Below, piece after piece: positions 31,192 to 44,845 of a DNA stretch of 64,000 nt. A model generated the notes under the pieces. It was not told the DNA's origin, ran no database searches, and saw nothing but the letters and a program-made list of their open reading frames with translations. The position numbers were made by a program, and so were the translations under genes. The stretch comes from Thermomicrobiales bacterium. GTDB taxonomy: Bacteria > Chloroflexota > Chloroflexia > Thermomicrobiales > UBA6265. Position 1 is the stretch's first letter; every line of letters begins with the position of its first letter. The stretch lies in the NCBI GenBank assembly GCA_020853615.1, contig JADYYO010000342.1, positions 3,172 through 67,171 of the forward strand, read 5' to 3'.

Positions 31192-31197
31192 TAGGAT
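31192..31197 (+). promoter_or_regulatory. TAGGAT box, 7 nt upstream of ATG 31205
   Basis: ctgaTAGGATggcggccATG. Confidence 0.4.
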
Positions 31198-31204
31198 GGC
31201 GGCC

Positions 31205-31771
31205 ATGCGTTTCTTCCGCCCGTCCCTGTTGTTCCTGACCCTCTGTTGCTTTGCGCTGCTCACGATGCTCTCGGTGCCGTGGGCGCTGGCCCAGGTCGCG
31301 CCCGCGACGCCGACCGCGTCCGACGGTGGGATGTTCTGGCAGGTCACCGACGGCGTGCTCAGGATCGTCGGGCCGGCGCTGGCGATCGTCCTGACCGCCC
31401 TGGCTGCGTTGCTGGTCCGGACGTTCCAGCAGAAGACGCACGCGACCGTCACCGATCGGCAGATGGCGATGATTGACACGTGGGTGGACGAGGCGGTGCG
31501 CTGGGTGGAGGAGCAGGTCCACAAGCGCGCCAAGGCCGGCGCCGGCAAGCCCGGCCCCGAGAGCAAGCTCGAGATGGGCGTGCGCTACGTGCTCGACCTG
31601 GTGGAAGCGGCTGGCATCCCCGGGTGGACCGCCCAGAAGGTCCAGCAGAAGATCGAGGCGGCGCTCCAGCACGAGCGGGTGGTGAACCGATCGCGCAGCT
31701 CGCTTGCGGAGGCGTTCGGCATGGGTCCGGACGCGATCAAGCCGCCGCCCAGCACCGGCGACGCGCCGTGA
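31205..31771 (+). CDS. holin, LL-H-like family
   Basis: N-terminal hydrophobic segments, then WVDEAVRWVEEQVHKRAKAGAGKPGPESKLEMGVRYVLDLVEAAGIP...KIEAAL, matching the LL-H holin pattern. Alternative ATG at 31196. Confidence 0.6.
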   Translation: MRFFRPSLLFLTLCCFALLTMLSVPWALAQVAPATPTASDGGMFWQVTDGVLRIVGPALAIVLTALAALLVRTFQQKTHATVTDRQMAMIDTWVDEAVRWVEEQVHKRAKAGAGKPGPESKLEMGVRYVLDLVEAAGIPGWTAQKVQQKIEAALQHERVVNRSRSSLAEAFGMGPDAIKPPPSTGDAP

Positions 31772-32280: not shown

Positions 32281-32461
32281 CGCGCTGGCCTTCCTGGCGC
32301 GCGACTGGCCCGAGCCCGATGCCCAGGGCGGCACCTATCTCTCCCCGCTCGCGACGATCAAGTTCGTGACCGCGCTGACCGCGCTGAACGACTACATCGA
32401 GGACGACCATGCCCAGTGCCACGCGCCGGCGCCCGCCCCAGCCGCAGCCCCAGACCCGTAG
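31967..32461 (+). CDS. o-spanin-like lipoprotein overlapping the i-spanin gene in another frame (start unresolved)
   Basis: RLRLAWLSWCALSLTAC (lipobox Cys codon 32156-32158) then Pro-rich CPEPLPPLPAPPP. No ATG/GTG lies close upstream (CTG at 32111; first ATG at 31967). Confidence 0.4.
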   Translation: MPWPTSTARSPSTEAPSKSSAASATPRATGSRISSRASPPAAISPGRRLRLAWLSWCALSLTACKLWGGGAPAARCPEPLPPLPAPPPTLQVVERTCAGPDLPADALAFLARDWPEPDAQGGTYLSPLATIKFVTALTALNDYIEDDHAQCHAPAPAPAAAPDP

Positions 32462-32999
32462 GTGCCGGTTCGAGGGCCGCCACGGCCGCTGCACCAGCAT
32501 CGCCACCAGCGACGGTTTTTGCGGTCGCCATCTCGAGGAGATCGCCGCCGACGTCGCGACGCCGACCCTGGGCGAGTCGATCCTGAACCTGTTTGCCGGC
32601 ACGCCGCGCCAGCAGCGCAAGGCCCAGGAGCACGTCGTGGCGGGGCTCGGCCAGTTCTTCCAGCAGACGATCGATCGGCGCTTCCCGCCGCCCGGCGCGC
32701 CGCCGGCTGGTGGCCAGGTCGGGCCCGGCCCGGCGGGGCCGGCGCGGCCACGCGTCTCGCCCGAGGCGATCGAGCGGCGCAAGCGGCAGATCGCGGCGCG
32801 CGCGACGATCGGGTTCGAGCCCGACGAGCCGCTGACCGTCGACGCGATCCGCAAGCGCCGCCATGAGCTCATGCGGGTCTGGCACACCGACAAGGCGGCC
32901 GGCGCGCCGGACCCGACGCGCGAGAAGATGGTCCGCCAGATCAACGCCGCCACCGAGTTCCTGCTGGCGCACGTCGCGCCCCCTCCGCCCCAACCGTAG
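32409..32999 (+). CDS. J-domain-like protein (HTD instead of HPD) with N-terminal Cys/His cluster
   Basis: LTVDAIRKRRHELMRVWHTDKAAG...REKMVRQINAATEFLL; N-terminal CRFEGRHGRCTSIATSDGFCGRH. Confidence 0.65.
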   Translation: MPSATRRRPPQPQPQTRRCRFEGRHGRCTSIATSDGFCGRHLEEIAADVATPTLGESILNLFAGTPRQQRKAQEHVVAGLGQFFQQTIDRRFPPPGAPPAGGQVGPGPAGPARPRVSPEAIERRKRQIAARATIGFEPDEPLTVDAIRKRRHELMRVWHTDKAAGAPDPTREKMVRQINAATEFLLAHVAPPPPQP

Positions 33000-33058: not shown

Positions 33059-33679
33059 TTGCTGCCCACGACCTACGATCCGCTGTTCCGCCGCTACGCG
33101 GGTTCGATCCCGGTCGCCTACCTGCGCGCGCTCACGCAGCGCGAGAGCGGCTTCAACCCCCGCGCCAACGCCGGCAAGGCGGCCGCGCAGGGCCTGCTGC
33201 AGATCACGACCGTGGCGCGCGACGCCTTCAACCGCGCCCAGGGCACGAGCTACACGCGGGACGACACGCTCGATCCCGAGGTGAACATCCGGATCGCGAC
33301 CAACCTGCTCCAGCGCATCATCGCCAGCTACCGCGCGCACCCGAGCGCCAACATGCGCGAGGACTGGAGCAACCCGGCGTTCGTCCAACTGCTGACCGCC
33401 GGCTGGAACGCCGGCTACTCCGAGGGCGGCGGCGTCGGCAAGGTCGCGCGCTACCTCGAGCAGCGCAACCTGCCGGTCACGCCCGCCACGGTCTACCAGC
33501 ACGCCGGCGCGGCCGGCGCGGTCGCGTTCTTGTCCGATCCGGCCCGGGCCCGCTGGCACCAGTCGGTGGCCGAGCTCTACCTGGCGCAGCCCGATCGCGC
33601 CTCCGCCGCCACGCCGGCGCTGGGCCTGCTGGCCATGGCGCTGCTCGCGTGGGGCGGCTACACCCTGCTGACGAGGTGA
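33059..33679 (+). CDS. lytic transglycosylase (SLT domain) with C-terminal TM anchor; endolysin candidate
   Basis: LTQRESGFNPRANAGKAAAQGLLQIT (catalytic-Glu motif ES-GLLQI); TTG start; ends LGLLAMALLAWGGYTLLTR. Confidence 0.75.
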   Translation: MLPTTYDPLFRRYAGSIPVAYLRALTQRESGFNPRANAGKAAAQGLLQITTVARDAFNRAQGTSYTRDDTLDPEVNIRIATNLLQRIIASYRAHPSANMREDWSNPAFVQLLTAGWNAGYSEGGGVGKVARYLEQRNLPVTPATVYQHAGAAGAVAFLSDPARARWHQSVAELYLAQPDRASAATPALGLLAMALLAWGGYTLLTR

Positions 33680-35888: not shown

Positions 35889-36452
35889 ATGCGCTCTCCC
35901 ACGAACCTCGAACGCCGCCCGATCAACCGCTGGGACTCCTTCGCCACCGACGAGTTTCGCCACCGCGCCTACCTGTTCGGGAGCGGGAACATCGGACGCA
36001 TGGACCACTGCAACATGGACGTGCCGGGCTCGCTGTCGCCGGACCTGACGACGGTGATCGAGCACGTCTACGCGCGGACCGAGGCGGCCCCGCGCGATCT
36101 GGTGGCGACCCTCGATCTCCATCGGTGGGCCAGCCACGCGGTCGTCCGCTTGCTCGTCGGCGACAAGCCGCGCCGCGTGTTCGCCCTGGCGGATCTGCTG
36201 CAGGAACGTCCGTGGGAGCCGGCGGCCATCGCGATCGCGCGCGAGATGGAGGCCGGCGAGCCCGCGGCGGCAGGAGTGGTCGCGGCCTACAAGGAGCGTC
36301 TCGGACAGCGGCGCGGCGACGGGCCGCCGGGGGTGGAGGTGCCGGTGCGCCAGTACGTCGCCGTCGACATCGATGCTCCGGACTGGCCGCCCGGGCCGCC
36401 GACCCGGATCTGGATCCATCTCGAGGGCTTCCAGGTCTGGCCGCAGTGCTGA
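35889..36452 (+). CDS. hypothetical protein (187 aa)
   Basis: Full ORF MRSPTNLERRPINRWDSFATDEFRHRAYLFG... Confidence 0.7.
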   Translation: MRSPTNLERRPINRWDSFATDEFRHRAYLFGSGNIGRMDHCNMDVPGSLSPDLTTVIEHVYARTEAAPRDLVATLDLHRWASHAVVRLLVGDKPRRVFALADLLQERPWEPAAIAIAREMEAGEPAAAGVVAAYKERLGQRRGDGPPGVEVPVRQYVAVDIDAPDWPPGPPTRIWIHLEGFQVWPQC

Positions 36453-36643
36453 TCGGCTTCGACCGCACGAGCGGCGAGATCCTGATCGACCGTCACGGTC
36501 GCCGCATCACCGATGTTGGTCTCGCGGCGTTGTGGTTGCGCTGGGACGCTGGCACGCCACCCGAGACGCGGGTTGCCGAGACGCTCGTGATCGACAACTA
36601 CACCCGGGGGCGCGACGACGGGATCCCGAGTGCCTTCGGGTAA
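36446..36643 (+). CDS. hypothetical small protein (65 aa)
   Basis: GTG overlapping the upstream stop (GTGCTGA); VLIGFDRTSGEILIDRHGRRITDVGLAALW... Confidence 0.5.
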   Translation: MLIGFDRTSGEILIDRHGRRITDVGLAALWLRWDAGTPPETRVAETLVIDNYTRGRDDGIPSAFG

Positions 36644-36653
36644 GGGCTACGTG

Positions 36654-36659
36654 TAGACT
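36654..36659 (+). promoter_or_regulatory. TAGACT box, 7 nt upstream of ATG 36667
   Basis: gtGTAGACTGcggcccATG. Confidence 0.45.
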
Positions 36660-36666
36660 GCGGCCC

Positions 36667-37687
36667 ATGAAGCTCTCCGTCATCACTCCGACCTGTCGCT
36701 CCAACCCGCGGTTCGCGGAGATGGCGGCGACGCTCCTGCAGTCGTTCATGCGCGCGCCGGCGACGACGCTGCTCGAGTGGCTCATCGTCGACGAGGTGCT
36801 CTGGCGCGATCCGCCCGAGGAGCGCCTGGCGCCGATCACCGAGGCGCTCGCGACACTGCCGCTCGAGGTGCGCCAGCGGATCCACGTCGATCACTTCGCG
36901 CCGCCGCCCGGCCAGCACCGCGGCCCCGACATCGCCGACCCGCTGCCCGCCCACAACACCGCGCGCAACGCCGGCCTGGCCGCGGTCGCGCCGGACAGCC
37001 GCTACGTCATCATCCTGTCGGACTGCTCGCTCGTCACGTCCGACTGGGTCACCGTCGCGTGCGAGCTGGCGCAGCAGCACGTGGGCTGGAAGTGCCGGCT
37101 GGCGCAGGTCCACGACATGGTCGTGCCCCACCACCAGCCGCTCCGCTACCAGGACGCGTGGGACACGTTCCACCCGGTCGCAGCGACGACGGTGGCCGGG
37201 CCGTGCTGGGGCGCGCCGCTCGACGCGTTCCTCGCGGTGGGCGGCTTCGACGCCGACTACGACGGCGAGGACGACTACTACGACCACGAGATCCTGCTGC
37301 GCCTCAGCCGCGTCGGGATCCAGTTCCACACCACCAAGCGCGCCGGCGTCGTCCGGCTCCGCCGCACCCTCGTCAAGCACGAGGTGACCAACCACCGCGA
37401 GGTGCTCCATGCGAAGCGCAACGTCGCCTTCTACCGCGCCCTGGCCGCCGACCGCGATCGTCTCCTGCCGGGTGGCAACGCCACCGGAGGTGCCCAGCTT
37501 GGCCGAGGCGCCCCCCACCAGCCGCCGCGTCCCGCTCCGGCTCCGGCTCCGGCTCGCGTGGCGCCGCCTGTGGCGGCCGGAACGCGTCGGGTTCCGGGCG
37601 CTGGCGTTCCGCCGGCGCGACCTGCACCGGCGCGTCCTGCGGCTGCACCTGCTGCAGACCACCGGCTCGCGGTGGGATCCGCCGTGA
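36667..37687 (+). CDS. family-2 (GT-A) glycosyltransferase; reading frame switches +1 near 37450-37500
   Basis: MKLSVITPTCRSNPRF..., GGFDADYDGEDDYYDHEILLRL. GC3 collapses in the starting frame after ~37455 while the +1 frame has high GC3 and stops at 37685-37687. Confidence 0.6.
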
Positions 37688-39309
37688 CGGCCGCGCCGCC
37701 GGTCGCGCGCAGGAACGATCCCCTGACGCCGGCGGCGCACGCGAGCGAGATCTGCGGCTACGTCCACGACGGCACCGCCTGCAAGCTGGTCACCGGCCAC
37801 GCCGGCGCGCACGTCTTCGGGACGCCCGAGTGGGTGTTCGGCGTCGACCCGGCGACGTACGTGCCGCGGTACCGGGAGCTCGAGGCCGCGATGGCCGAGC
37901 GCCGCCTCGCGATCGCCGATCCCCAGACGCCGGCCGAGCGGATCGAGCCGCTCAAGGCGGAGATCGCGGGGCTGGCCGACGAGCAGTCCGATCTCTGGTA
38001 TGCGCTCAGCCCGGCGCAGAAGGACGAGGTGGACCCCGAGGGCGCGCAGGCGCGCGCCTACGCCCGCGAGGCGGGCTCGATCCCGCAGGAGGCCCCGCTG
38101 TCGCTCCACGAGCGCGCCCAGCAGGCGAAGGCGGCCAAGGCGGCCCGGGTGGCGGCCGAGCAGGCCGGGACCGCGCCACCGCTGGCGGACGACGAGCGCT
38201 GCCCGTACACGCCCACCCAGGGGAGCTACGCCGGCATGCGTTGCCGCCACCGCGCGCGCCACGGCGGGCCGCACGCCTACATCGGCCAGACGCCGGCGGC
38301 GCCGGCGGCGCCCGCGGCCAAGAAGCCCGCGCCCACCGTGCCCCGCACGCCGCCGCAGCCCACCGCGGCGATCCAGCAGACGATGACCGCGCTGGCGGAC
38401 CACGGCCAGGTCGTGGTCGGCGAGCTCGCGCTCCTGCCCAAGAACCGCGCCCGGATCGCGGTGGCGATGGCGGTCGCGCTCCGCCAAGACGGGCTGCTCA
38501 CGCTCGAGGCCGACTACCGGCAGTTGCTGACCGAGATCGCCGCGGTCGAGTTCGGGCCGGCCGGCAACGCGCGGTCGGCTCTCGACGAGACGCCCGAGGG
38601 CTGGCTCGCCCAGCGGATGTCGACCTACGCCGGCGCCGAGCTCGACGCCGACCTGGCCGGCGTGGCCGAGATCTGCCAGATGCTCCCGGCGATCCCGGTC
38701 TCGCAGGTCGCGTTCCGCGCGCTCCACGACCACGCGCTGCAGGTCGACCGCTGGCGGGCCGCGAGCGGGCTGTCGCCCCGGGCCGAGATGAAGCTGATCG
38801 ATCGCGCCTACGCCTGCGCCGCCGACCACGGGATCGCGCTGACGCCGCCCGACGACTTTGGGGACTACGCGCTCGACGAGCTGGCCGAGCTCGAGCGCGC
38901 CAACGCCGAGGTGGGCCAGGACGAGATCGCGTCGGTCGAGCCGCTCTCGGCGGCGGCCGCCGCGTGGGAGGCGATGGGCCCGGTCCGGGCGATCGTCCAC
39001 ACCGACGCCTACCTGCAGGCGATCGCGCACGCCAACGGCATCACCGTCGACGAGGCGCAGCGCCGGCGGGACCAGCCGGTGACGCCCGCCGATCAGCCGC
39101 ACGACGACTACGCGACGATCGTGCGCTGGGTGGCGCCTGCCGACGTCACCGGGTTGCTGGCGAAGAACTGGGTGCTGGTCAACGAGGACGACCAGGATCA
39201 GCTCCGCACCTGCTGGCCGCTGCCGGAGCCCGAGTGGCCCGAGGAGCGCCAGCTGGCGTGGGTGCCCGACGCCGACGCGGTCGCGATGCTGACGCTCGAT
39301 CCGCTGTAG
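37684..39309 (+). CDS. hypothetical protein (541 aa) with two Cys/His motifs
   Basis: GTG 37684 in a GTGA overlap with the +1-frame stop; CGYVHDGTACKLVTGHAGAHVF and CPYTPTQGSYAGMRCRHRARHGGPHAY; GC3 high again from here. Confidence 0.6.
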   Translation: MTAAPPVARRNDPLTPAAHASEICGYVHDGTACKLVTGHAGAHVFGTPEWVFGVDPATYVPRYRELEAAMAERRLAIADPQTPAERIEPLKAEIAGLADEQSDLWYALSPAQKDEVDPEGAQARAYAREAGSIPQEAPLSLHERAQQAKAAKAARVAAEQAGTAPPLADDERCPYTPTQGSYAGMRCRHRARHGGPHAYIGQTPAAPAAPAAKKPAPTVPRTPPQPTAAIQQTMTALADHGQVVVGELALLPKNRARIAVAMAVALRQDGLLTLEADYRQLLTEIAAVEFGPAGNARSALDETPEGWLAQRMSTYAGAELDADLAGVAEICQMLPAIPVSQVAFRALHDHALQVDRWRAASGLSPRAEMKLIDRAYACAADHGIALTPPDDFGDYALDELAELERANAEVGQDEIASVEPLSAAAAAWEAMGPVRAIVHTDAYLQAIAHANGITVDEAQRRRDQPVTPADQPHDDYATIVRWVAPADVTGLLAKNWVLVNEDDQDQLRTCWPLPEPEWPEERQLAWVPDADAVAMLTLDPL

Positions 39310-39312
39310 ACT
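39307..39312 (+). promoter_or_regulatory. TAGACT box, 7 nt upstream of ATG 39320
   Basis: ctGTAGACTGgagcgcATG; the TAG is the stop of the upstream gene. Confidence 0.45.
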
Positions 39313-39319
39313 GGAGCGC

Positions 39320-39937
39320 ATGGCGCTCGACCTCGGCTTCCGGAAGCCCGTCCCCGACAACGTCTTTGCCGAGGTGATGAGCGGGTGGGGCCGGCCGCGC
39401 GCCGGCGGCAAGGAGCACTCGGGGCTCGACATCCTCCTGCCGATCGGCAAGCCGGTCGTGGCGATGGCGGACGGGCAGGTGATCCGCGTCCAGGCCACCG
39501 ACGACGGCGGCTCGGCCGGCATCTTCCTCGTGATCCGCCACCCGTCGGGGATCTCGAGCCGCTACATCCACCTGGGCCGGGCCGACGTGCGGCTCAACCA
39601 GCAGGTCGCCAAGGGCCAGGTGATCGGCGCGTCGGGCAACACCGCGATCAAGAACAGCCCGCCGCACATGCACGTCGACATCAAGGTGCCGGCGGCGCTC
39701 TTGCCGCAGATCGAGGCGGCCGCCGGCAAGCCGCCGGGCGGGTGGCACCCGCTGGTCAACCCCTGGGGCTACGGCGTGCCGGCCGAGCCGTGGATCCCGG
39801 TCGACCGCTACTCGGCCCGGACGCTCGAGGACGCGCAGCGCAACGGGATCCCGCTCTACCGGGGCGGGGCCGCGAAGGCGGTCGGGCTCGCCGCGCTGCT
39901 GCTCTTGGGCTGGGGGCTCTACCGCCTGACGCGCTAG
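39320..39937 (+). CDS. M23/LytM metallopeptidase with C-terminal TM anchor
   Basis: HSGLDILLPIGKPVVAMADGQV, RYIHLGRADVRLNQQVAKGQVIGASGNT, PPHMHVDI; ends AVGLAALLLLGWGLYRLTR. Confidence 0.8.
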   Translation: MALDLGFRKPVPDNVFAEVMSGWGRPRAGGKEHSGLDILLPIGKPVVAMADGQVIRVQATDDGGSAGIFLVIRHPSGISSRYIHLGRADVRLNQQVAKGQVIGASGNTAIKNSPPHMHVDIKVPAALLPQIEAAAGKPPGGWHPLVNPWGYGVPAEPWIPVDRYSARTLEDAQRNGIPLYRGGAAKAVGLAALLLLGWGLYRLTR

Positions 39938-40200
39938 ATGCGCTCGCGGATCTGCTGCGGCTGGGCCGGCCCGTCGATGCGGGGTTGCGCCGGGGCCAAC
40001 GGGAAGTCGCGCAGGGCCTCGGCGCGCGCCGCGTCGTTCATGCGGAGGAGCTCGTCGTTGTGCGCCTTGCACAACCGCGGCTCGAGGCCCTCGGCAAAGA
40101 CGCCCAGGGCGATGTCGTAGAGGACGGTGTACTCGGCCGGGCTCGCGCACCGGCAGCACGTGGCCGGCGCGGGTGGTTCGACAACGTCGGTGTTCGGCAT
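39934..40200 (-). CDS. hypothetical small protein (88 aa)
   Basis: Full ORF MPNTDVVEPPAPATCCRCASPAEYTVLYDIALGVF...; convergent overlap with the M23 gene stop. Confidence 0.65.
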   Translation of the reverse strand: MPNTDVVEPPAPATCCRCASPAEYTVLYDIALGVFAEGLEPRLCKAHNDELLRMNDAARAEALRDFPLAPAQPRIDGPAQPQQIRERI

Positions 40201-40223: not shown

Positions 40224-40571
40224 ATGTACGCGTGGCCCGACGATGCCCCCCGGATCAGCCCCACCCCCGCGCTCGAGGCGCACTACCGCGCGGCGATCGC
40301 CGCGTCGGTCGCGTGGCTCGAGGCCAACGCCGCGCCGGCGCCGACGTGGAGCGGCGGCCACCACGCCAGCCCGGCGGATCCCGCCGCGCAGGCGCACCAC
40401 GCCGCGATCGTGGCGGCGATCGCGGCGCAGCCCGGGCCGACGCCGCAGGGCCTCGCGCTCCGGACGATCGTCACCGTCGCGGCGCGCTGCGCGTTCGTCG
40501 CGCGCGCCGGCGGCTTTGGCGAGGCGGGCTGGGCCAAGGTGCGGGCGACCTTCCAGAGCCCGCGGTCGTAG
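40224..40571 (+). CDS. hypothetical Ala-rich protein (115 aa)
   Basis: MYAWPDDAPRISPTPALEAHYRAAIAASVAWLEAN... Confidence 0.6.
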   Translation: MYAWPDDAPRISPTPALEAHYRAAIAASVAWLEANAAPAPTWSGGHHASPADPAAQAHHAAIVAAIAAQPGPTPQGLALRTIVTVAARCAFVARAGGFGEAGWAKVRATFQSPRS

Positions 40572-40573
40572 CC

Positions 40574-41188
40574 GTGCCGATCCGCGGCCAGCGCGTCGTG
40601 ATCGTCGGGGACAGCCTGTCGGCCGGGCCGCACACGCCCGGCCAGGTGCTGGCCGATCGGCTCGCCGCCGCCGGCGCCGACGTTCGCGTGAACGCGCGCG
40701 TCGGGCGCAGCGCCAACAACTTCTACGGCCGCGAGGACTGGCGGGGCCAGCTGCAGCAGATCGCGGCGACGCACCCCGACGTCGCGATCGTCGTGCTCGG
40801 CACCAACGACATCGGCCTGTCGATGACCGTCGACGCCCAGCGCATGACGCAGCTCCGCGACGCGCTCGCCGGCGCCGGCGCCGACGTCTACGCGTTCGGG
40901 CCGCCGACGTTCCCGCCCGGCACCCGGCTGGTCGCCGGCCAGCCCCAGGTCGTGCGGATGATGCGCGACGTGTTCGGCGGTGATCGCTTCATCGACCTGA
41001 CGCCGCTGACCGCCGACCTGGTGACGAGCCAGCACCGGACCGGAGACCAGGTTCACTTCACCGCCGCCGGCGGCGACGTCGCCGGGCAGCGCATGGCCGA
41101 CGCGTTCCTGCGGGCCTCGAGCGCGCCGGGCGGCGGCTGGCCGGTCGCGGTCGCGCTGCTCGTGGCCGGCTGGTTCCTGCTGCGGTAG
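40574..41188 (+). CDS. SGNH/GDSL hydrolase (esterase) with C-terminal TM anchor
   Basis: GTG start; VVIVGDSLSAG (block I), VLGTNDIG (block III), GDQVHFT (block V DxxH); ends GGWPVAVALLVAGWFLLR. Confidence 0.75.
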   Translation: MPIRGQRVVIVGDSLSAGPHTPGQVLADRLAAAGADVRVNARVGRSANNFYGREDWRGQLQQIAATHPDVAIVVLGTNDIGLSMTVDAQRMTQLRDALAGAGADVYAFGPPTFPPGTRLVAGQPQVVRMMRDVFGGDRFIDLTPLTADLVTSQHRTGDQVHFTAAGGDVAGQRMADAFLRASSAPGGGWPVAVALLVAGWFLLR

Positions 41189-42118
41189 CTACGGCTGGAG
41201 GCCGTAGGCGTAGTTCATCGGGATGCGCTGCTCGATCCCGTCGAACCAGACGTGGGCGCGGCCCGGGATCCGGACCTGCTTGCCCCAGCCCTTGGTGCCG
41301 GTGAAGACGTCGAAGTGCGCGCCGAAGATGCCGCCGCCGGTGTCGTTCACGGTCACCCAGCCGTCGTGGACGTCGCCGCCCGGCAGGCGGAGCCCGACGA
41401 GCTCGAGCACCCAGACCCGGGTGCCGGCCGGCACGACGCCGCCCAGGCTCGCGTAGCGATCGTCGTGCCGCGGCAGCCGGCCGTTGTCGGCGGCGACCGT
41501 GCGGAACGGCCGGCACTCGATCCCCTTGGCGCAGATCGGCCAGCCGCCGGGCCCGGGCCGCTTCACCGCGAACGTGCGGACCTGCGTCACCTGCTGGCCG
41601 CTGACCCGCAGCCCGGCGTACCCCGGCTTGTTGGGCAGCCAGCCGTTGCGCTGCGCCAGCGCCAGCACCGGCTTGTAGAGCGGGGCGTCGGCGCCGGCGT
41701 CGCGCCAGCCGCTCACGTTGATCAGCCGCCCGTCCGCGAGGATGCTCGAGCCCTCGAGCGAGGCCTCGACGAACGCGTGGGCGTTGACCGGCGCGAGCAC
41801 GTGCCCGTCGGCGCCGTAGAGCGGCACCTGGCCCGGGCCCCACGGCTGGACCATGCCCACGTGGTAGTAGGTCAACTGCCAGCGGCGCATCGACTGGATC
41901 TGCGCCGGCGCGCTGCGCTGCAGGGCCTGCGCGATCGGCGCGAGGACGTGGTCCGTCTTGGCGCCGAACCACCCGTCGGCCTCGCCGCACGCCGGGTAGT
42001 CGCGCTGGAAGCGCCGCAGGTCGTCGCGCCAGTTCTCGCCCTCGTAGTCGCCGTCCACCTCGCCGTCGTAGTAGCCCAGCTTCTGGAGTGCGGCCTGTGC
42101 CTCGGGGATGCTCAGCAT
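41189..42118 (-). CDS. peptidoglycan-binding domain + 3D (MltA/RlpA-like) domain muralytic protein
   Basis: LQKLGYYDGEVDGDYEGENWRDDLRRFQ...ADGWFGAKT; C-terminal VNDTGGGIFGAHFDVFTG. Confidence 0.75.
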   Translation of the reverse strand: MLSIPEAQAALQKLGYYDGEVDGDYEGENWRDDLRRFQRDYPACGEADGWFGAKTDHVLAPIAQALQRSAPAQIQSMRRWQLTYYHVGMVQPWGPGQVPLYGADGHVLAPVNAHAFVEASLEGSSILADGRLINVSGWRDAGADAPLYKPVLALAQRNGWLPNKPGYAGLRVSGQQVTQVRTFAVKRPGPGGWPICAKGIECRPFRTVAADNGRLPRHDDRYASLGGVVPAGTRVWVLELVGLRLPGGDVHDGWVTVNDTGGGIFGAHFDVFTGTKGWGKQVRIPGRAHVWFDGIEQRIPMNYAYGLQP

Positions 42119-43860: not shown

Positions 43861-43979
43861 CGTGGCGTCCTTCGGTTGAGAGTCCAGTTTCGGTCACGCG
43901 GGCGTTCCTCGAGCTCGGCCAGCGCGACGGTTCCACAGGTCATCCACACCCTGTGGACAACCGCGATCATCACGTTCAT
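43857..43979 (-). CDS. 40-aa ORF coupled by ATGA overlaps on both sides (excisionase/RDF-sized)
   Basis: MNVMIAVVHRVWMTCGTVALAELEERPRDRNWTLNRRTPR; its ATG overlaps the int stop and its stop overlaps the next ATG. Confidence 0.4.
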   Translation of the reverse strand: MNVMIAVVHRVWMTCGTVALAELEERPRDRNWTLNRRTPR

Positions 43980-44833
43980 CGACGTTCCTCGACCGGCGGC
44001 TCGAACATGGATTCGGCGACCCGGTCGATCGCCTCGCCGCGGACGTGGTCGACGTACTGCATCGCCGTCGACAGGTTGGCCCACTGCATGTGCTCCATCA
44101 GCTTCGGGAGCGCCTCGGCGTCGCCGGCGTGGGCGCGCAGGAACGTCACCGCGTAGGTTCGACGCAGCCGGTGCGGGTGCAGCCCGTCGATCCCACACCG
44201 TCCTCCCAGCCGCTTGAGTTGGCGCTGGACCTTCCGGGCCGCGCTCTGCAGCCGCACCTCCTCGTCCTTGGACGTCGGAACGAGCAGGTGCGCGACGGTA
44301 TCCCAGCCGCGCTCGTGCGCGAGCAGCTCGAGCCACGGCTTGAACGTCTTGAGCACGGTGAACTCGAGGTAGCGCCGCCCCTTCGCAACGAACGAGAGCC
44401 GGCCCGTAACGAGCGCGCTGACGATCTGCGCGCGCTGCATCCTCAGCACGTCGGCGTCGCGGAACCCGCGGTATGCCATCAACCCGATCACCGCGCGCAT
44501 CGGCGGTGTAAGATCCTTCGCCGCCCGCACCTCGAGCATGAGCCGCTGCAGCGGCTGGGCGTCGACCGGCACTTTCTCTTTCGCGCGCCGGGGCGGCGGC
44601 AAGCGGAACTCGCCCAACGCCTCGCGCAGCGCAGGGTCCACGGCGTAGTCCGCCCAGCGGCGGGCGGCCGCCCGCACCAACCGGCGCGTCTTCGGCGCGC
44701 CCCGCTTGAGCCGCTCGATCCAGCCGCCGTCCTCGGTCGCGCGCTTCGCGTGGTGGACGTAGATCGCGACCGTGCCGGGCTGGAGCCCGAACCGCCCCAG
44801 GTAGGTGCGGAAGCCGTCGAGCGTGGTGGCCAT
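43976..44833 (-). CDS. int: tyrosine recombinase / phage integrase
   Basis: C-terminal catalytic motifs GLHPHRLRRTYAVTFL (HxLRHT-type) and LMEHMQWANLSTAMQYV (GH..x..T..Y); start MATTLDGFRTYL (a GTG at 44845 is also possible). Confidence 0.85.
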   Translation of the reverse strand: MATTLDGFRTYLGRFGLQPGTVAIYVHHAKRATEDGGWIERLKRGAPKTRRLVRAAARRWADYAVDPALREALGEFRLPPPRRAKEKVPVDAQPLQRLMLEVRAAKDLTPPMRAVIGLMAYRGFRDADVLRMQRAQIVSALVTGRLSFVAKGRRYLEFTVLKTFKPWLELLAHERGWDTVAHLLVPTSKDEEVRLQSAARKVQRQLKRLGGRCGIDGLHPHRLRRTYAVTFLRAHAGDAEALPKLMEHMQWANLSTAMQYVDHVRGEAIDRVAESMFEPPVEERR

Positions 44834-44845
44834 GTCCGAAAACAC

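Follow-up and report, generated by a model that had tools for sequence, protein, structure and literature searches.

The locus lies within a 64,000-nt stretch of DNA, referred to below as the window, and consists of a long gene encoding a two-domain protein of 880 aa and, probably, a much smaller gene embedded in it on the same strand in the +1 frame. Frames are named relative to the long gene, f0 being the reading frame of ATG 36667. The features are as follows.

36667–39309, forward strand: main gene (f0), 880 aa, comprising a GT-A-like N-domain, a Pro/Ala linker and a mostly helical C-terminal region of unknown fold
36667–37476, forward strand: N-domain, predicted GT-A (GT2-like) fold (AF2 pLDDT 75, pTM 0.75)
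36784–36795, 36961–36975, 37015–37026 and 37261–37275, forward strand: conserved N-domain motifs IVDE, ARNAG, LSDC and DGEDD, respectively
37399–37402, forward strand: Shine-Dalgarno-like GAGG, 6 nt upstream of ATG 37409
37409–37687, forward strand: putative embedded +1 gene, 92 aa, stop TGA 37685–37687 (MRSATSPSTAPWPPTAIVSCRVATPPEVPSLAEAPPTSRRVPLRLRLRLAWRRLWRPERVGFRALAFRRRDLHRRVLRLHLLQTTGSRWDPP), proposed from selection and conservation
37409–37411, forward strand: proposed +1 start codon, formed by a rare f0 His codon, CAT, and the G of the next codon
37456–37683, forward strand: dual-coded stretch, the Pro/Ala-rich inter-domain linker in f0 and the conserved core in +1
37499–37501, forward strand: alternative +1 start TTG, first codon of the LAEAP block, with GGAGG (37486–37490) 8 nt upstream
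37684–37686, forward strand: f0 GTG overlapping the +1 stop, unsupported as a gene start because the codon is not conserved
37747–37812, forward strand: first Cys/His motif of the C-terminal region, EICG-x7-C-x5-H-x3-H, kept in most homologues
38194–38274, forward strand: second Cys/His motif of the C-terminal region, ERC-x13-C-x5-H-x3-H, from the alignment of homologues

The f0 ORF is open from position 36373, and ATG 36667 corresponds to the invariant first methionine of all aligned homologues. A protein database search showed these homologues to be continuous in 10/10 cases (608–880 aa, 42–99% identity), each retaining the order N-domain, Pro/Ala linker and C-domain; one of them, an 880-aa protein of 99% identity, has six member sequences. 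In loci that carry the +1 ORF (hereafter carriers), the openness of f0 is uninformative on fusion, because any gene here has an open +2 frame, and the fusion status of f0 therefore rests on homologues that lack the ORF. Two such non-carriers, L005 and L008, lack the +1 peptide and are nevertheless fused, their linkers having normal f0 GC3. The original prediction that the ORF is not one gene is thus contradicted by both groups of homologues.

Structural comparison of the N-domain model using Foldseek against the PDB returned K4CP (2z86), TarS (5tzi), SpsA (1qg8/1h7l) and GalNAc-transferases, with E-values from 3e-9 to 1e-6 and TM-scores of ~0.55; the top 50 PDB matches are all GT-A enzymes, one being the glycosyltransferase domain of LH3. 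Residues 1–270 resemble SpsA, TarS and K4CP in predicted fold and in carrying GT2-like motifs at the usual places, but they share only 12–16% identity with these enzymes and are fused to a region of 540 aa. In addition, a canonical DxD is absent at the expected place, where an invariant SDC stands instead. Specifically, LSDC contains the invariant D119, following a strand at residues 113–117, and DGEDD occupies residues 199–203. The N-domain gave no Pfam match at E ≤ 0.1 and no PHROG match, so that the earlier designation of the gene as GT2 holds as far as a predicted GT-A fold and is not extended by family profiles. The AF2 model of the C-terminal region is mostly helical (pTM 0.37) and matched no PDB fold at E < 0.1; in its second Cys/His motif, C512, C526, H532 and H536 are invariant in 11/11 sequences. 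A PDB sequence profile search with the full protein gave no match at E ≤ 1 beyond low-complexity ones. No Pfam or PHROG match was accepted for the N-domain, the +1 ORF or the C-region, a sub-threshold Cas5d match from these searches being taken as spurious.

Along the gene, f0 GC3 is 0.97–1.00, and it falls to 0.50–0.70 (90-nt windows) between ~37450 and ~37690. Counted by codon, 47/76 f0 codons at 37456–37683 end in G or C, compared with 783/804 outside this interval of the gene (binomial P = 3e-26), and the +1 frame reaches 72/76 over the same interval. The +1 translation, ...RRVPLRLRLRLAWRRLWRPERVGFRALAFRRRDLHRRVLRLHLLQTTGSRWDPP, ends at TGA 37685–37687, overlapping the f0 GTG at 37684–37686, and its GC1/GC2/GC3 within the stretch (~0.79–0.85/0.62/0.95) resemble the 0.77/0.52/0.94 that is normal for the gene. 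An unsupervised phase scan of the whole window identified 37455–37689 as the sole phase switch within a spanning coding-strand ORF. Pro/Ala composition does not explain the dip, because a second Pro/Ala stretch of the same gene (~38290–38370) has an f0 GC3 of 1.00. The dip recurs in eight relatives (L001–L004, L006, L009, L010 and L015) and is therefore no peculiarity or error of this assembly. Its boundary coincides with the +1 stop in all eight clear carriers, f0 GC3 being 16–19/30 in the 30 codons before that stop and 25–30/30 just after it. The shift of the coding signal from f0 to +1 and the termination of the +1 reading at 37685–37687, both anticipated in the original prediction, are thus confirmed.

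The same cannot be said of the new gene that had been placed at GTG 37684 with the GTGA overlap as a coupling signature. This f0 codon is GTG in three carriers, ATG in L003 and L015, CTG in L009, L006 and L010, and GTA in L004, whose +1 frame ends in TAG. Any +1 TGA necessarily gives an xTG codon in f0; the overlap is therefore a geometric by-product and carries no weight.

The +1 ORF at 37409–37687 lies wholly inside the intact f0 ORF and would encode a 92-aa, very basic protein rich in Arg, Leu and Trp (pI 12, 19 Arg), with the conserved pattern ..LAEAPP..RRVPL..LAWRR..RRRDLHRRxLRLHLLQTT... Gene callers predict this protein on short contigs (P0011, P0012), and a 99%-identical copy of the ORF was found on a separate short contig. 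The peptide is kept in L001–L004, L006, L009, L010 and L015, representing at least four independent lineages. At the proposed start, a +1 ATG or GTG stands at the same aligned codon in 9/9 loci having the +1 ORF: ATG in the window and in L001–L003, and GTG (f0 CGT followed by G) in L009, L004, L006, L010 and L007. The non-carriers L005 and L008 have CGC+C and CGC+T at this site and no start. A +1-frame ATG or GTG arises at 0.8% of f0 codons as background, and the f0 codons behind the conserved start are rare, CAT accounting for 3.7% of His and CGT for 3.6% of Arg codons; the probability that four independent lineages share the site by chance is ~1e-7, with 40 candidate positions allowed for.

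Upstream of the +1 start, GAGG, GGAGG, AGGAG or AAGGAG occurs at a distance of 6–11 nt in all carriers, and the non-carrier L005 has AAAGAG where its sister L010 has AAGGAG. Such motifs hint weakly at a dedicated ribosome-binding site upstream of 37409, since they are partly forced by a conserved f0 Glu codon. The alternative start TTG 37499 is less supported: it is present only in the window and L001–L003, CTG standing there in L004 and L006 and TAG in L009, and it was down-ranked for its lack of conservation beyond close relatives and for the absence of its Shine-Dalgarno sequence in L002 and L003. In L009 (76% identical), the TAG arose from a synonymous f0 change, CTT to CTA, and cuts the ORF from the 37409-equivalent to 30 aa, while the +1 peptide downstream is intact; the gene may have been lost recently, the assembly may be wrong at this point, or translation may enter +1 downstream of the TAG codon. 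Between the start and LAEAP, the +1 pN/pS is ≥ 1 and f0 does show purifying selection; because purifying selection in +1 is absent there, the N-terminal 30 aa of the +1 protein are unsupported as functional. ORF length was rejected as evidence, because +1 stops are sparse in this gene, at about one per 78 codons.

Substitutions in the conserved core follow the +1 frame. Among five close sequences, variable sites at f0 positions 1/2/3 number 31/12/9 in the core, as against 57/34/110 in the N-domain and 162/145/273 in the C region (together 219/179/383; chi-square P = 1.7e-6), so that the changes move to the +1 wobble position. Nei–Gojobori pN/pS summed over 10 pairs is 0.26 in +1 and 2.38 in f0; over the six frames, +1 is lowest, the best antisense frame reaches 0.54 and all others are ≥ 1.6. 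Within the close clade, comprising the window, L001–L003, L009 and L015, f0 pN/pS of the dual-coded stretch is 1.5–3.0. The deep lineages L004, L006 and L010, with 45–50% full-length and 61–65% N-domain identity, gave pair values of 0.5–1.0 in +1 and 1.05–1.8 in f0, from alignments that were built on the +1 peptide and are thus slightly biased toward +1; the sequences compared throughout are few and related. A Ser codon of the conserved block is AGC in the window and TCC in L006. Two natural losses complement this pattern: L005, sister of the carrier L010, and L008, sister of the carrier L004, have neither start codon nor +1 peptide nor GC3 dip, and both keep the fused f0 protein. The Arg/Leu peptide of the original prediction is thereby supported as being under selection and as a probable real product.

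Collectively, these observations make it probable that 36667–39309 is a single continuous fusion gene, and that a second gene, at 37409–37687, is embedded in its +1 frame, spanning the last part of the GT-A domain and all of the linker. By the same token, the overlap is likely to be something other than a frameshift, a pseudogene or an assembly error. Ribosomes would most likely begin the +1 gene independently at ATG 37409, with GAGG 6 nt upstream, and would translate it to TGA 37685, yielding the extremely basic 92-aa protein; we infer both internal initiation, rather than frameshifting, and accumulation of the product. The embedded gene would dominate selection in this stretch because the linker needs little specific sequence. 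Codon positions 1 and 2 of +1, which are f0 positions 2 and 3, would be held fixed, and the +1 wobble, which is f0 position 1, would drift to G/C under the GC pressure of the genome. This combination of +1 constraint and a free wobble at f0 position 1 would account for the collapse of f0 GC3, the +1 GC3 of ~95% and the Pro/Ala translation of f0, where shifting the reading of Arg (CGN) and Leu (CTN) codons back by one base would produce (G/C)CG and (G/C)CT and so give Pro and Ala. The openness of f0 would follow automatically: relative to a gene with GC3 ~95%, f0 is the '+2' frame, where stops need a wobble T. When the corresponding +2 frame is read along the whole gene, it stays open for 866 aa.

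Two further readings are, taken jointly, rather unlikely. The first is a two-isoform GT-A enzyme made by a new kind of +1 frameshift without a recognisable slippery site, in which a ~339-aa enzyme with an Arg/Leu/Trp tail binding membranes or nucleic acids would stand beside the 880-aa fusion. The second is a linker born by a frame-hopping fusion: a GT gene would have lost its stop and been read out of frame through an older small basic gene into the next gene, the small gene being stop-free out of frame at GC3 ~95% and surviving inside its own shadow.

Programmed frameshifting more generally, +1 (or −2) at ~37474–37500, would likewise yield a ~339-aa glycosyltransferase with an Arg/Leu tail in addition to the 880-aa fusion, and it is an unlikely explanation. 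Two-isoform frameshifts are familiar from phages, for example in tail assembly chaperones, and prfB shifts to +1 at CUU UGA C with an upstream Shine-Dalgarno-like element. As in such systems, the signal here passes from f0 to +1 with no stop between, and in the window GGAGG (37486–37490) lies upstream; the +1 frame is under selection with a conserved stop, the most conserved nucleotide block, CAGCYTGGCSGAGGCGCC, falls exactly at the transition, and the L009 TAG would be harmless if ribosomes entered +1 downstream of it. Unlike prfB and the tail chaperones, the locus has no conserved shift site, no slow or stop codon and no conserved spacing, and a conserved +1 start is present. No shift-prone site is conserved between LPG (37465–37473), the final motif kept in f0, and LAEAP (from 37499), the earliest one kept in +1: the junction f0 codon is CTT, CTA or CCT, followed by the common GGC, f0 has no stop or hungry codon there, and the LPG–LAEAP spacer differs in length and sequence. 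The upstream GGAGG is found only in the window and L001, and an Rfam scan of 36000–40000 (E ≤ 1) gave no match. Frameshifting also leaves unexplained why rare T-ending f0 codons give a +1 ATG or GTG at one aligned site in carriers only. The original prediction that the GT2 gene needs a +1 shift to reach its stop therefore finds no support, as the +1 ORF has its own conserved start at 37409.

It is very unlikely that the +1 frame is an untranslated relic, the tail of an old GT gene left behind when a frameshift mutation fused it to the next gene. The genome-typical codon usage of +1, often taken as the mark of an older frame, would suit this account, as would an f0 openness expected from composition alone. 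Over the observed divergence (N-domains 57–65% identical), a relic would be expected to decay. Instead the peptide has been kept (pN/pS 0.26 in close and 0.5–1.0 in deep pairs), the start codon is maintained via rare codons, and in lineages that lost the start the linker is fully ameliorated. Among the 5.8e9 and 1.84e9 proteins searched, no GT carries an in-frame tail, the only apparent case, P0013, being the indel-bearing L010 contig.

Constraint from an antisense gene sharing the wobble phase, or from a DNA or RNA element that includes the GCTCCG repeat, is highly improbable. The antisense frame with the same third position does have the second-lowest pN/pS, but this value is twice that of +1, and the frame is open from 36598 to 39522 without any stop or start close to where the signal begins and ends. 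It would have GC1 of 0.62 and GC2 of ~0.8, an inversion of the usual order. A (GCTCCG)x3 tandem repeat at 37534–37551 supplies several GCT codons, and one nucleotide block is very conserved; the repeat covers only 18/228 nt, Rfam gave no match, and in eight clear carriers the signal ends exactly at the forward +1 stop. An assembly or sequencing indel, or a recent pseudogene in this genome, both raised in the original prediction, has a negligible probability: a single indel near 37456 would give the pattern in one genome, and L010 does have an (unrelated) N-domain indel, but the same architecture is found in eight other assemblies from different samples and projects, f0 is never interrupted in the compared loci, the 99%-identical 880-aa protein with six members and the 99%-identical +1 ORF on its own contig repeat it, and the stretch is under purifying selection.

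Small genes within larger ones are known from phages: lambda Rz1 occupies the +1 frame of Rz, and gene E of phiX174 is nested in gene D. Reviews cover such embedded same-strand overlaps in phages (PMC8227390, PMC7017920). Like these two pairs, the embedded gene proposed here is a small same-strand ORF nested completely within a larger gene and read in +1, with its own start codon and a sequence resembling a ribosome-binding site; its product would be a compositionally odd orphan, dispensable in some relatives and encoded in a virus-like element next to genes that degrade the cell envelope. Unlike Rz1, the +1 protein has no lipobox or signal peptide and the segment before IVSC is not hydrophobic; unlike gene E, it has no transmembrane segment. 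The overlap also departs from both pairs in its host frame, which encodes a disordered inter-domain linker, and in that codon usage is dominated by the embedded gene and not by the host gene. An o-spanin or lipoprotein was considered and rejected, IVSC occurring only in the close clade, L004, L006 and L010 having no Cys at that position, and a hydrophobic h-region being absent. Overprinted Arg-rich proteins from alternative frames have been recognised by composition and selection tests (PMC6195259, PMC4316641, PMC6188560, PMC8850804). The +1 protein shares with them a basic, low-complexity orphan character and detection by frame-specific selection, with pN/pS low in one frame and > 1 in the other, but differs in the genome-typical codon usage of the embedded frame, which by the usual rule would be called the older one. 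In our reading, this usage reflects weak constraint on the linker and not age.

The neighbouring genes encode holin, SLT, M23, GDSL and 3D-domain proteins. A putative cationic, amphipathic accessory protein active on the envelope is our leading, though tentative, guess for the function of the +1 product, and a role in binding nucleic acids has about the same probability. Disruptin, gp28 of phage phiKT, is a small cationic lysis protein resembling antimicrobial peptides (bioRxiv 10.1101/515445). Like disruptin, the +1 protein is small, strongly cationic and amphipathic, and its gene has lysis-type neighbours in an element whose host possesses an outer membrane; unlike disruptin, it is encoded inside another gene, and the two have no sequence similarity, so that the analogy is functional only.

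The overlap is unusually clean for one on the same strand in a very GC-rich genome, because a GC3 of ~97% makes the signals (frame-specific composition, rare alternative-frame starts and substitution phase) almost binary, and the sister lineages without the embedded gene provide natural controls. It suggests that a second gene can reside in a disordered Pro/Ala linker and can dictate the linker sequence. Two cues are misleading in such genomes: the continuity of a long ORF does not count against overlapping or split genes, nor does a GTGA overlap count in favour of a gene boundary.

In full-length records of the family, gene finders annotate the 880-aa ORF alone, and the predicted 92-aa protein therefore stays invisible in every one of them. 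To judge from a word-indexed profile search of 5.8e9 proteins and a full phmmer search of 1.84e9 representatives, neither of which brought up a homologue elsewhere, the +1 protein appears to be an orphan. Three matches were real, two being the same embedded ORF on short contigs and the third P0013; a match to P0014 was a repeat artefact. With the +1 protein, a PDB sequence profile search gave low-complexity matches only. A distant-mode DNA search of a phage collection with 36300–39400 gave no match, and two viral-contig scans found no relatives. A genome-contig scan recovered one truncated fragment in a Planctomycetota MAG, ending short of the linker, and a metagenome scan yielded five loci, two of them (L009 and L010) informative on the overlap.

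The long gene at 36667–39309, which encodes 880 aa, appears from sequence to harbour an embedded same-strand overlapping gene, an arrangement of an already known kind for which the comparative signals here are unusually clean. The window is 72.5% G+C. In it, the reading frame of ATG 36667 (f0) has been open since 36373, stops at 39307–39309 and keeps a GC3 of 0.97–1.00 nearly throughout. Between 37456 and 37683, 47 of 76 f0 codons end in G or C, compared with 783 of 804 in the remaining gene (binomial P = 3e-26), and 72 of 76 do so in the +1 frame. The latter is open from 37388, includes ATG 37409, reads ...SLAEAPPTSRRVPLRLRLRLAWRRLWRPERVGFRALAFRRRDLHRRVLRLHLLQTTGSRWDPP and ends at TGA 37685–37687, which overlaps an f0 GTG at 37684. 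A blind phase scan of the entire window recovered 37455–37689, the sole phase switch within a coding-strand ORF spanning it, and the frame switch described in the original prediction was reproduced in every detail. Amino-acid composition is not the cause of the dip, since another Pro/Ala stretch of the same gene (~38290–38370) has a GC3 of 1.00. A hexanucleotide tandem repeat, (GCTCCG)x3 at 37534–37551, reads PAPAPA in f0 and LRLRLR in +1 and supplies some of the T-ending f0 codons.

DNA was compared for eight of ten homologues (all but P0001 and P0005), five metagenome loci and one short contig. The +1 peptide is kept in a close clade (the window, L001–L003, L009 and L015) and in three deep lineages (L004, L006 and L010), with the blocks LAEAP, R.VP, L.LA.R and R.L.R..L.L invariant; L007, in which the +1 ORF is basic but shorter and divergent, is ambiguous. 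Counted by f0 codon position (1/2/3) across the five closely related sequences, variable sites number 31/12/9 in the dual-coded core (37456–37683), whereas the N-domain has 57/34/110 and the C region 162/145/273 (chi-square P = 1.7e-6); in the core, the wobble position is now that of the +1 frame. Nei–Gojobori pN/pS, summed over ten close pairs, is 0.26 for +1 and 2.38 for f0; the antisense frame in the same wobble phase scores 0.54, and none of the other three frames falls below 1.6. Deep pairs give 0.5–1.0 for +1 versus 1.05–1.8 for f0. In all eight clear carriers, 16–19 of the 30 f0 codons preceding the +1 stop end in G or C, compared with 25–30 of the 30 directly after it. Peptide conservation, substitution phase, pN/pS and this GC3 boundary bear out the proposal of real +1 coding ending at 37687, and indicate that translation of the frame probably continues, or ended only very recently, in all four lineages. 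An antisense gene was also considered and rejected: the antisense frame is open over 36598–39522, with no start or stop near the signal edges, and the GC1/GC2 profile would be inverted.

A search of 5.8e9 proteins returned ten relatives of the f0 protein (99, 77, 76, 71, 48, 49, 42, 61, 57 and 47% identity), all of them continuous proteins of 608–880 aa with an N-domain, a Pro/Ala-rich linker and a C-terminal region in that order. This contradicts the claim that the long ORF is not one gene, with the caveat that, where GC3 approaches 97%, stops are hardly ever met in the frame lying one base upstream of a genuine gene (the +2 frame of the f0 gene is open for 866 codons, 36777–39377); f0 stands in just this position to the +1 ORF, so an open f0 across the linker is no evidence in itself. 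The decisive relatives for single-gene status are L005 (P0007) and L008 (P0010), loci without the +1 peptide and without the GC3 dip that keep the N–linker–C fusion. The more distant N-domains of L011–L013 (30–41% identity) likewise continue in frame into C-terminal extensions of other kinds. For f0 ribosomes there is no stop between 36667 and 39307, and the predicted default product is the 880-aa fusion, whose linker includes GGNATGGAQLGRGAPHQPPRPAPAPAPAR. The real +1 coding of the original prediction stands, but the f0 frame is one gene and not two, a frameshift is unnecessary, and the locus is neither a pseudogene nor an assembly error.

The distant copies of the GT-A-like domain (L011:3001–4251, L012:962–2164 and L013:380–1330) carry quite different C-terminal extensions, one copy combining a (PEPK)n linker with a Lys/Ser-rich tail, and the domain apparently acts as a module that has been fused repeatedly via low-complexity linkers. 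The 866-codon +2 ORF (plus strand) and a 974-codon antisense ORF (36598–39522, minus strand) are shadows of the real gene that arise because GC3 is near 97%, and ORF length is worthless as evidence in this genome.

Entry into the +1 frame would most plausibly occur by internal initiation at 37409, as its start codon is conserved and a shift site is not. All loci that have a +1 ORF carry, as f0 codon 248, a codon that ends in T and precedes a G (CAT in the window and L001–L003; CGT in L009, L004, L006, L010 and L007), yielding a +1 ATG or GTG; in both non-carriers the codon is CGC, with C or T after it. In these genes CAT represents 3.7% of His codons and CGT 3.6% of Arg codons, a +1 ATG/GTG arises at just 0.8% of f0 codons, and the chance of the same aligned start in four independent lineages is ~1e-7, with 40 candidate positions allowed for. 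Located 6–11 nt upstream is GAGG, GGAGG, AGGAG or AAGGAG, an SD-like motif partly dictated by a conserved f0 Glu; L005 has AAAGAG versus AAGGAG in its carrier sister L010.

The main difficulty for initiation at 37409 is L009, in which the codon corresponding to TTG 37499 is TAG, ahead of an intact +1 peptide. Owing to this codon, frameshifting, which had been thought necessary for the glycosyltransferase gene to reach its stop, retains a small probability; against it, no conserved shift-prone site lies between LPG (37465–37473, the last invariant f0 motif) and LAEAP, the junction contains no frame-0 stop or rare codon, and GGAGG 37486–37490 is confined to two sequences. With its own conserved start at codon 248, the +1 frame does not need a shift. 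The TAG could be a recent loss, conceivable because L005 and L008 indicate that the gene is dispensable, an error in an old assembly, or a sign of +1 entry farther downstream. In this relative at 76% identity (L009:2566–2844, Ga0079224_100027453, equivalent to 37409–37687), the TAG reflects a silent f0 change from CTT to CTA and cuts the +1 ORF to 30 aa; at LAW, GTG replaces GCG, a possible restart codon.

The linker sequence itself is probably dictated by the embedded gene. Arg (CGN) and Leu (CTN) dominate the +1 protein and, with G/C at the wobble position, are read in f0 as (G/C)CG and (G/C)CT, that is, Pro and Ala, which a disordered linker tolerates. Within this stretch f0 pN/pS exceeds 1, and the linker of L005, where the embedded gene is lost, is still Pro/Ala-rich with normal GC3. 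Any +1 TGA forces an f0 xTG codon, so the GTGA "coupling signature" is geometric; the f0 codon at the +1 stop varies among relatives (GTG, ATG or CTG, and GTA in L004, whose +1 stop is TAG), and the proposed gene start at 37684 is not upheld. In L015, a 917-nt contig with the N-domain cut off, the gene caller at source reported the 92-aa +1 ORF (57–335) and a separate C-region gene (335–916) from an overlapping TGATG; these calls match the two-gene picture, and annotation of the locus depends on contig extent.

The N-domain (residues 1–270; model pLDDT 75) matches the GT-A glycosyltransferases K4CP, TarS, SpsA and GalNAc-transferases (E down to 3e-9, TM about 0.55), has SDC where the canonical DxD is expected and has no match in Pfam, PHROG or PDB sequences; the "GT2" assignment is supported at the level of the fold, not of family membership. 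The C-terminal region is predicted to be mostly helical, matched no known fold and contains two conserved Cys/His motifs, possibly zinc-binding knuckles, in a region of low AF2 confidence.

Cys/His motifs of the C-terminal region
37747–37812, motif 1, C-x7-C-x5-H-x3-H, conserved
38194–38274, motif 2, C-x13-C-x5-H-x3-H, invariant in 11/11 sequences

The +1 protein (92 aa, pI 12, 19 Arg, 0 Lys, 12 Leu, 4 Trp) contains MRSATSPSTAPWPPTAIVSCRVATPPEVPSLAE and has HLLQTTGSRWDPP as its C-terminal part, with an LRLRLRL alternation and amphipathic stretches; it lacks both a transmembrane segment and a conserved lipobox. Our leading, tentative guess, drawn by analogy with disruptin (bioRxiv 10.1101/515445), is an envelope-active cationic peptide; nucleic-acid binding is about equally likely.

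The fusion gene sits in a phage-like element bearing an integrase, among a holin, SLT, M23 peptidase, GDSL esterase and 3D/PG-binding protein, and its single genome match is a fragment in a Planctomycetota MAG (L014). Gene order is conserved between ~21600–44900 of the window and loci L001–L008.

Conserved gene order
ParB-like protein, first in the order
31196–31771, holin
33059–33679, SLT
Unknown proteins of 208, 305 and 127 aa, between SLT and the fusion gene
39320–39937, M23 peptidase, after the fusion gene
40313–41188, GDSL esterase
41189–42118, minus strand, 3D/PG-binding protein
43976–44845, minus strand, tyrosine integrase

Pfam and PHROGs recognised no capsid, portal or terminase among the scanned proteins, and the element is either a phage or another integrative element. 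A 196-aa protein (32409–32999) has a weak, sub-threshold DUF5763 match at residues 27–44 (E = 4e-5; 23.4 bits vs a cutoff of 26.3).

The N-domain tree places the carriers in four or five lineages and each of the two non-carriers as sister to a carrier; the common ancestor of the fusion family probably already had the embedded gene, with at least two later losses. Two large protein searches found no free-standing or tail-fused version of the +1 protein, which fits an origin by overprinting in place. Less probably, the linker arose by reading through a pre-existing small gene out of frame. The codon-usage rule would point to +1 as the older frame; we attribute its genome-typical codon usage to weak linker constraint, not age. 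In L010 (3001–4035), an indel just past the AGPCW motif of the N-domain leads the N-terminal ORF into the +1 peptide out of frame, and the chimera, stored in databases as the 344-aa protein P0013, has the look of a glycosyltransferase carrying an Arg/Leu tail, though it is either an artefact or a damaged copy.
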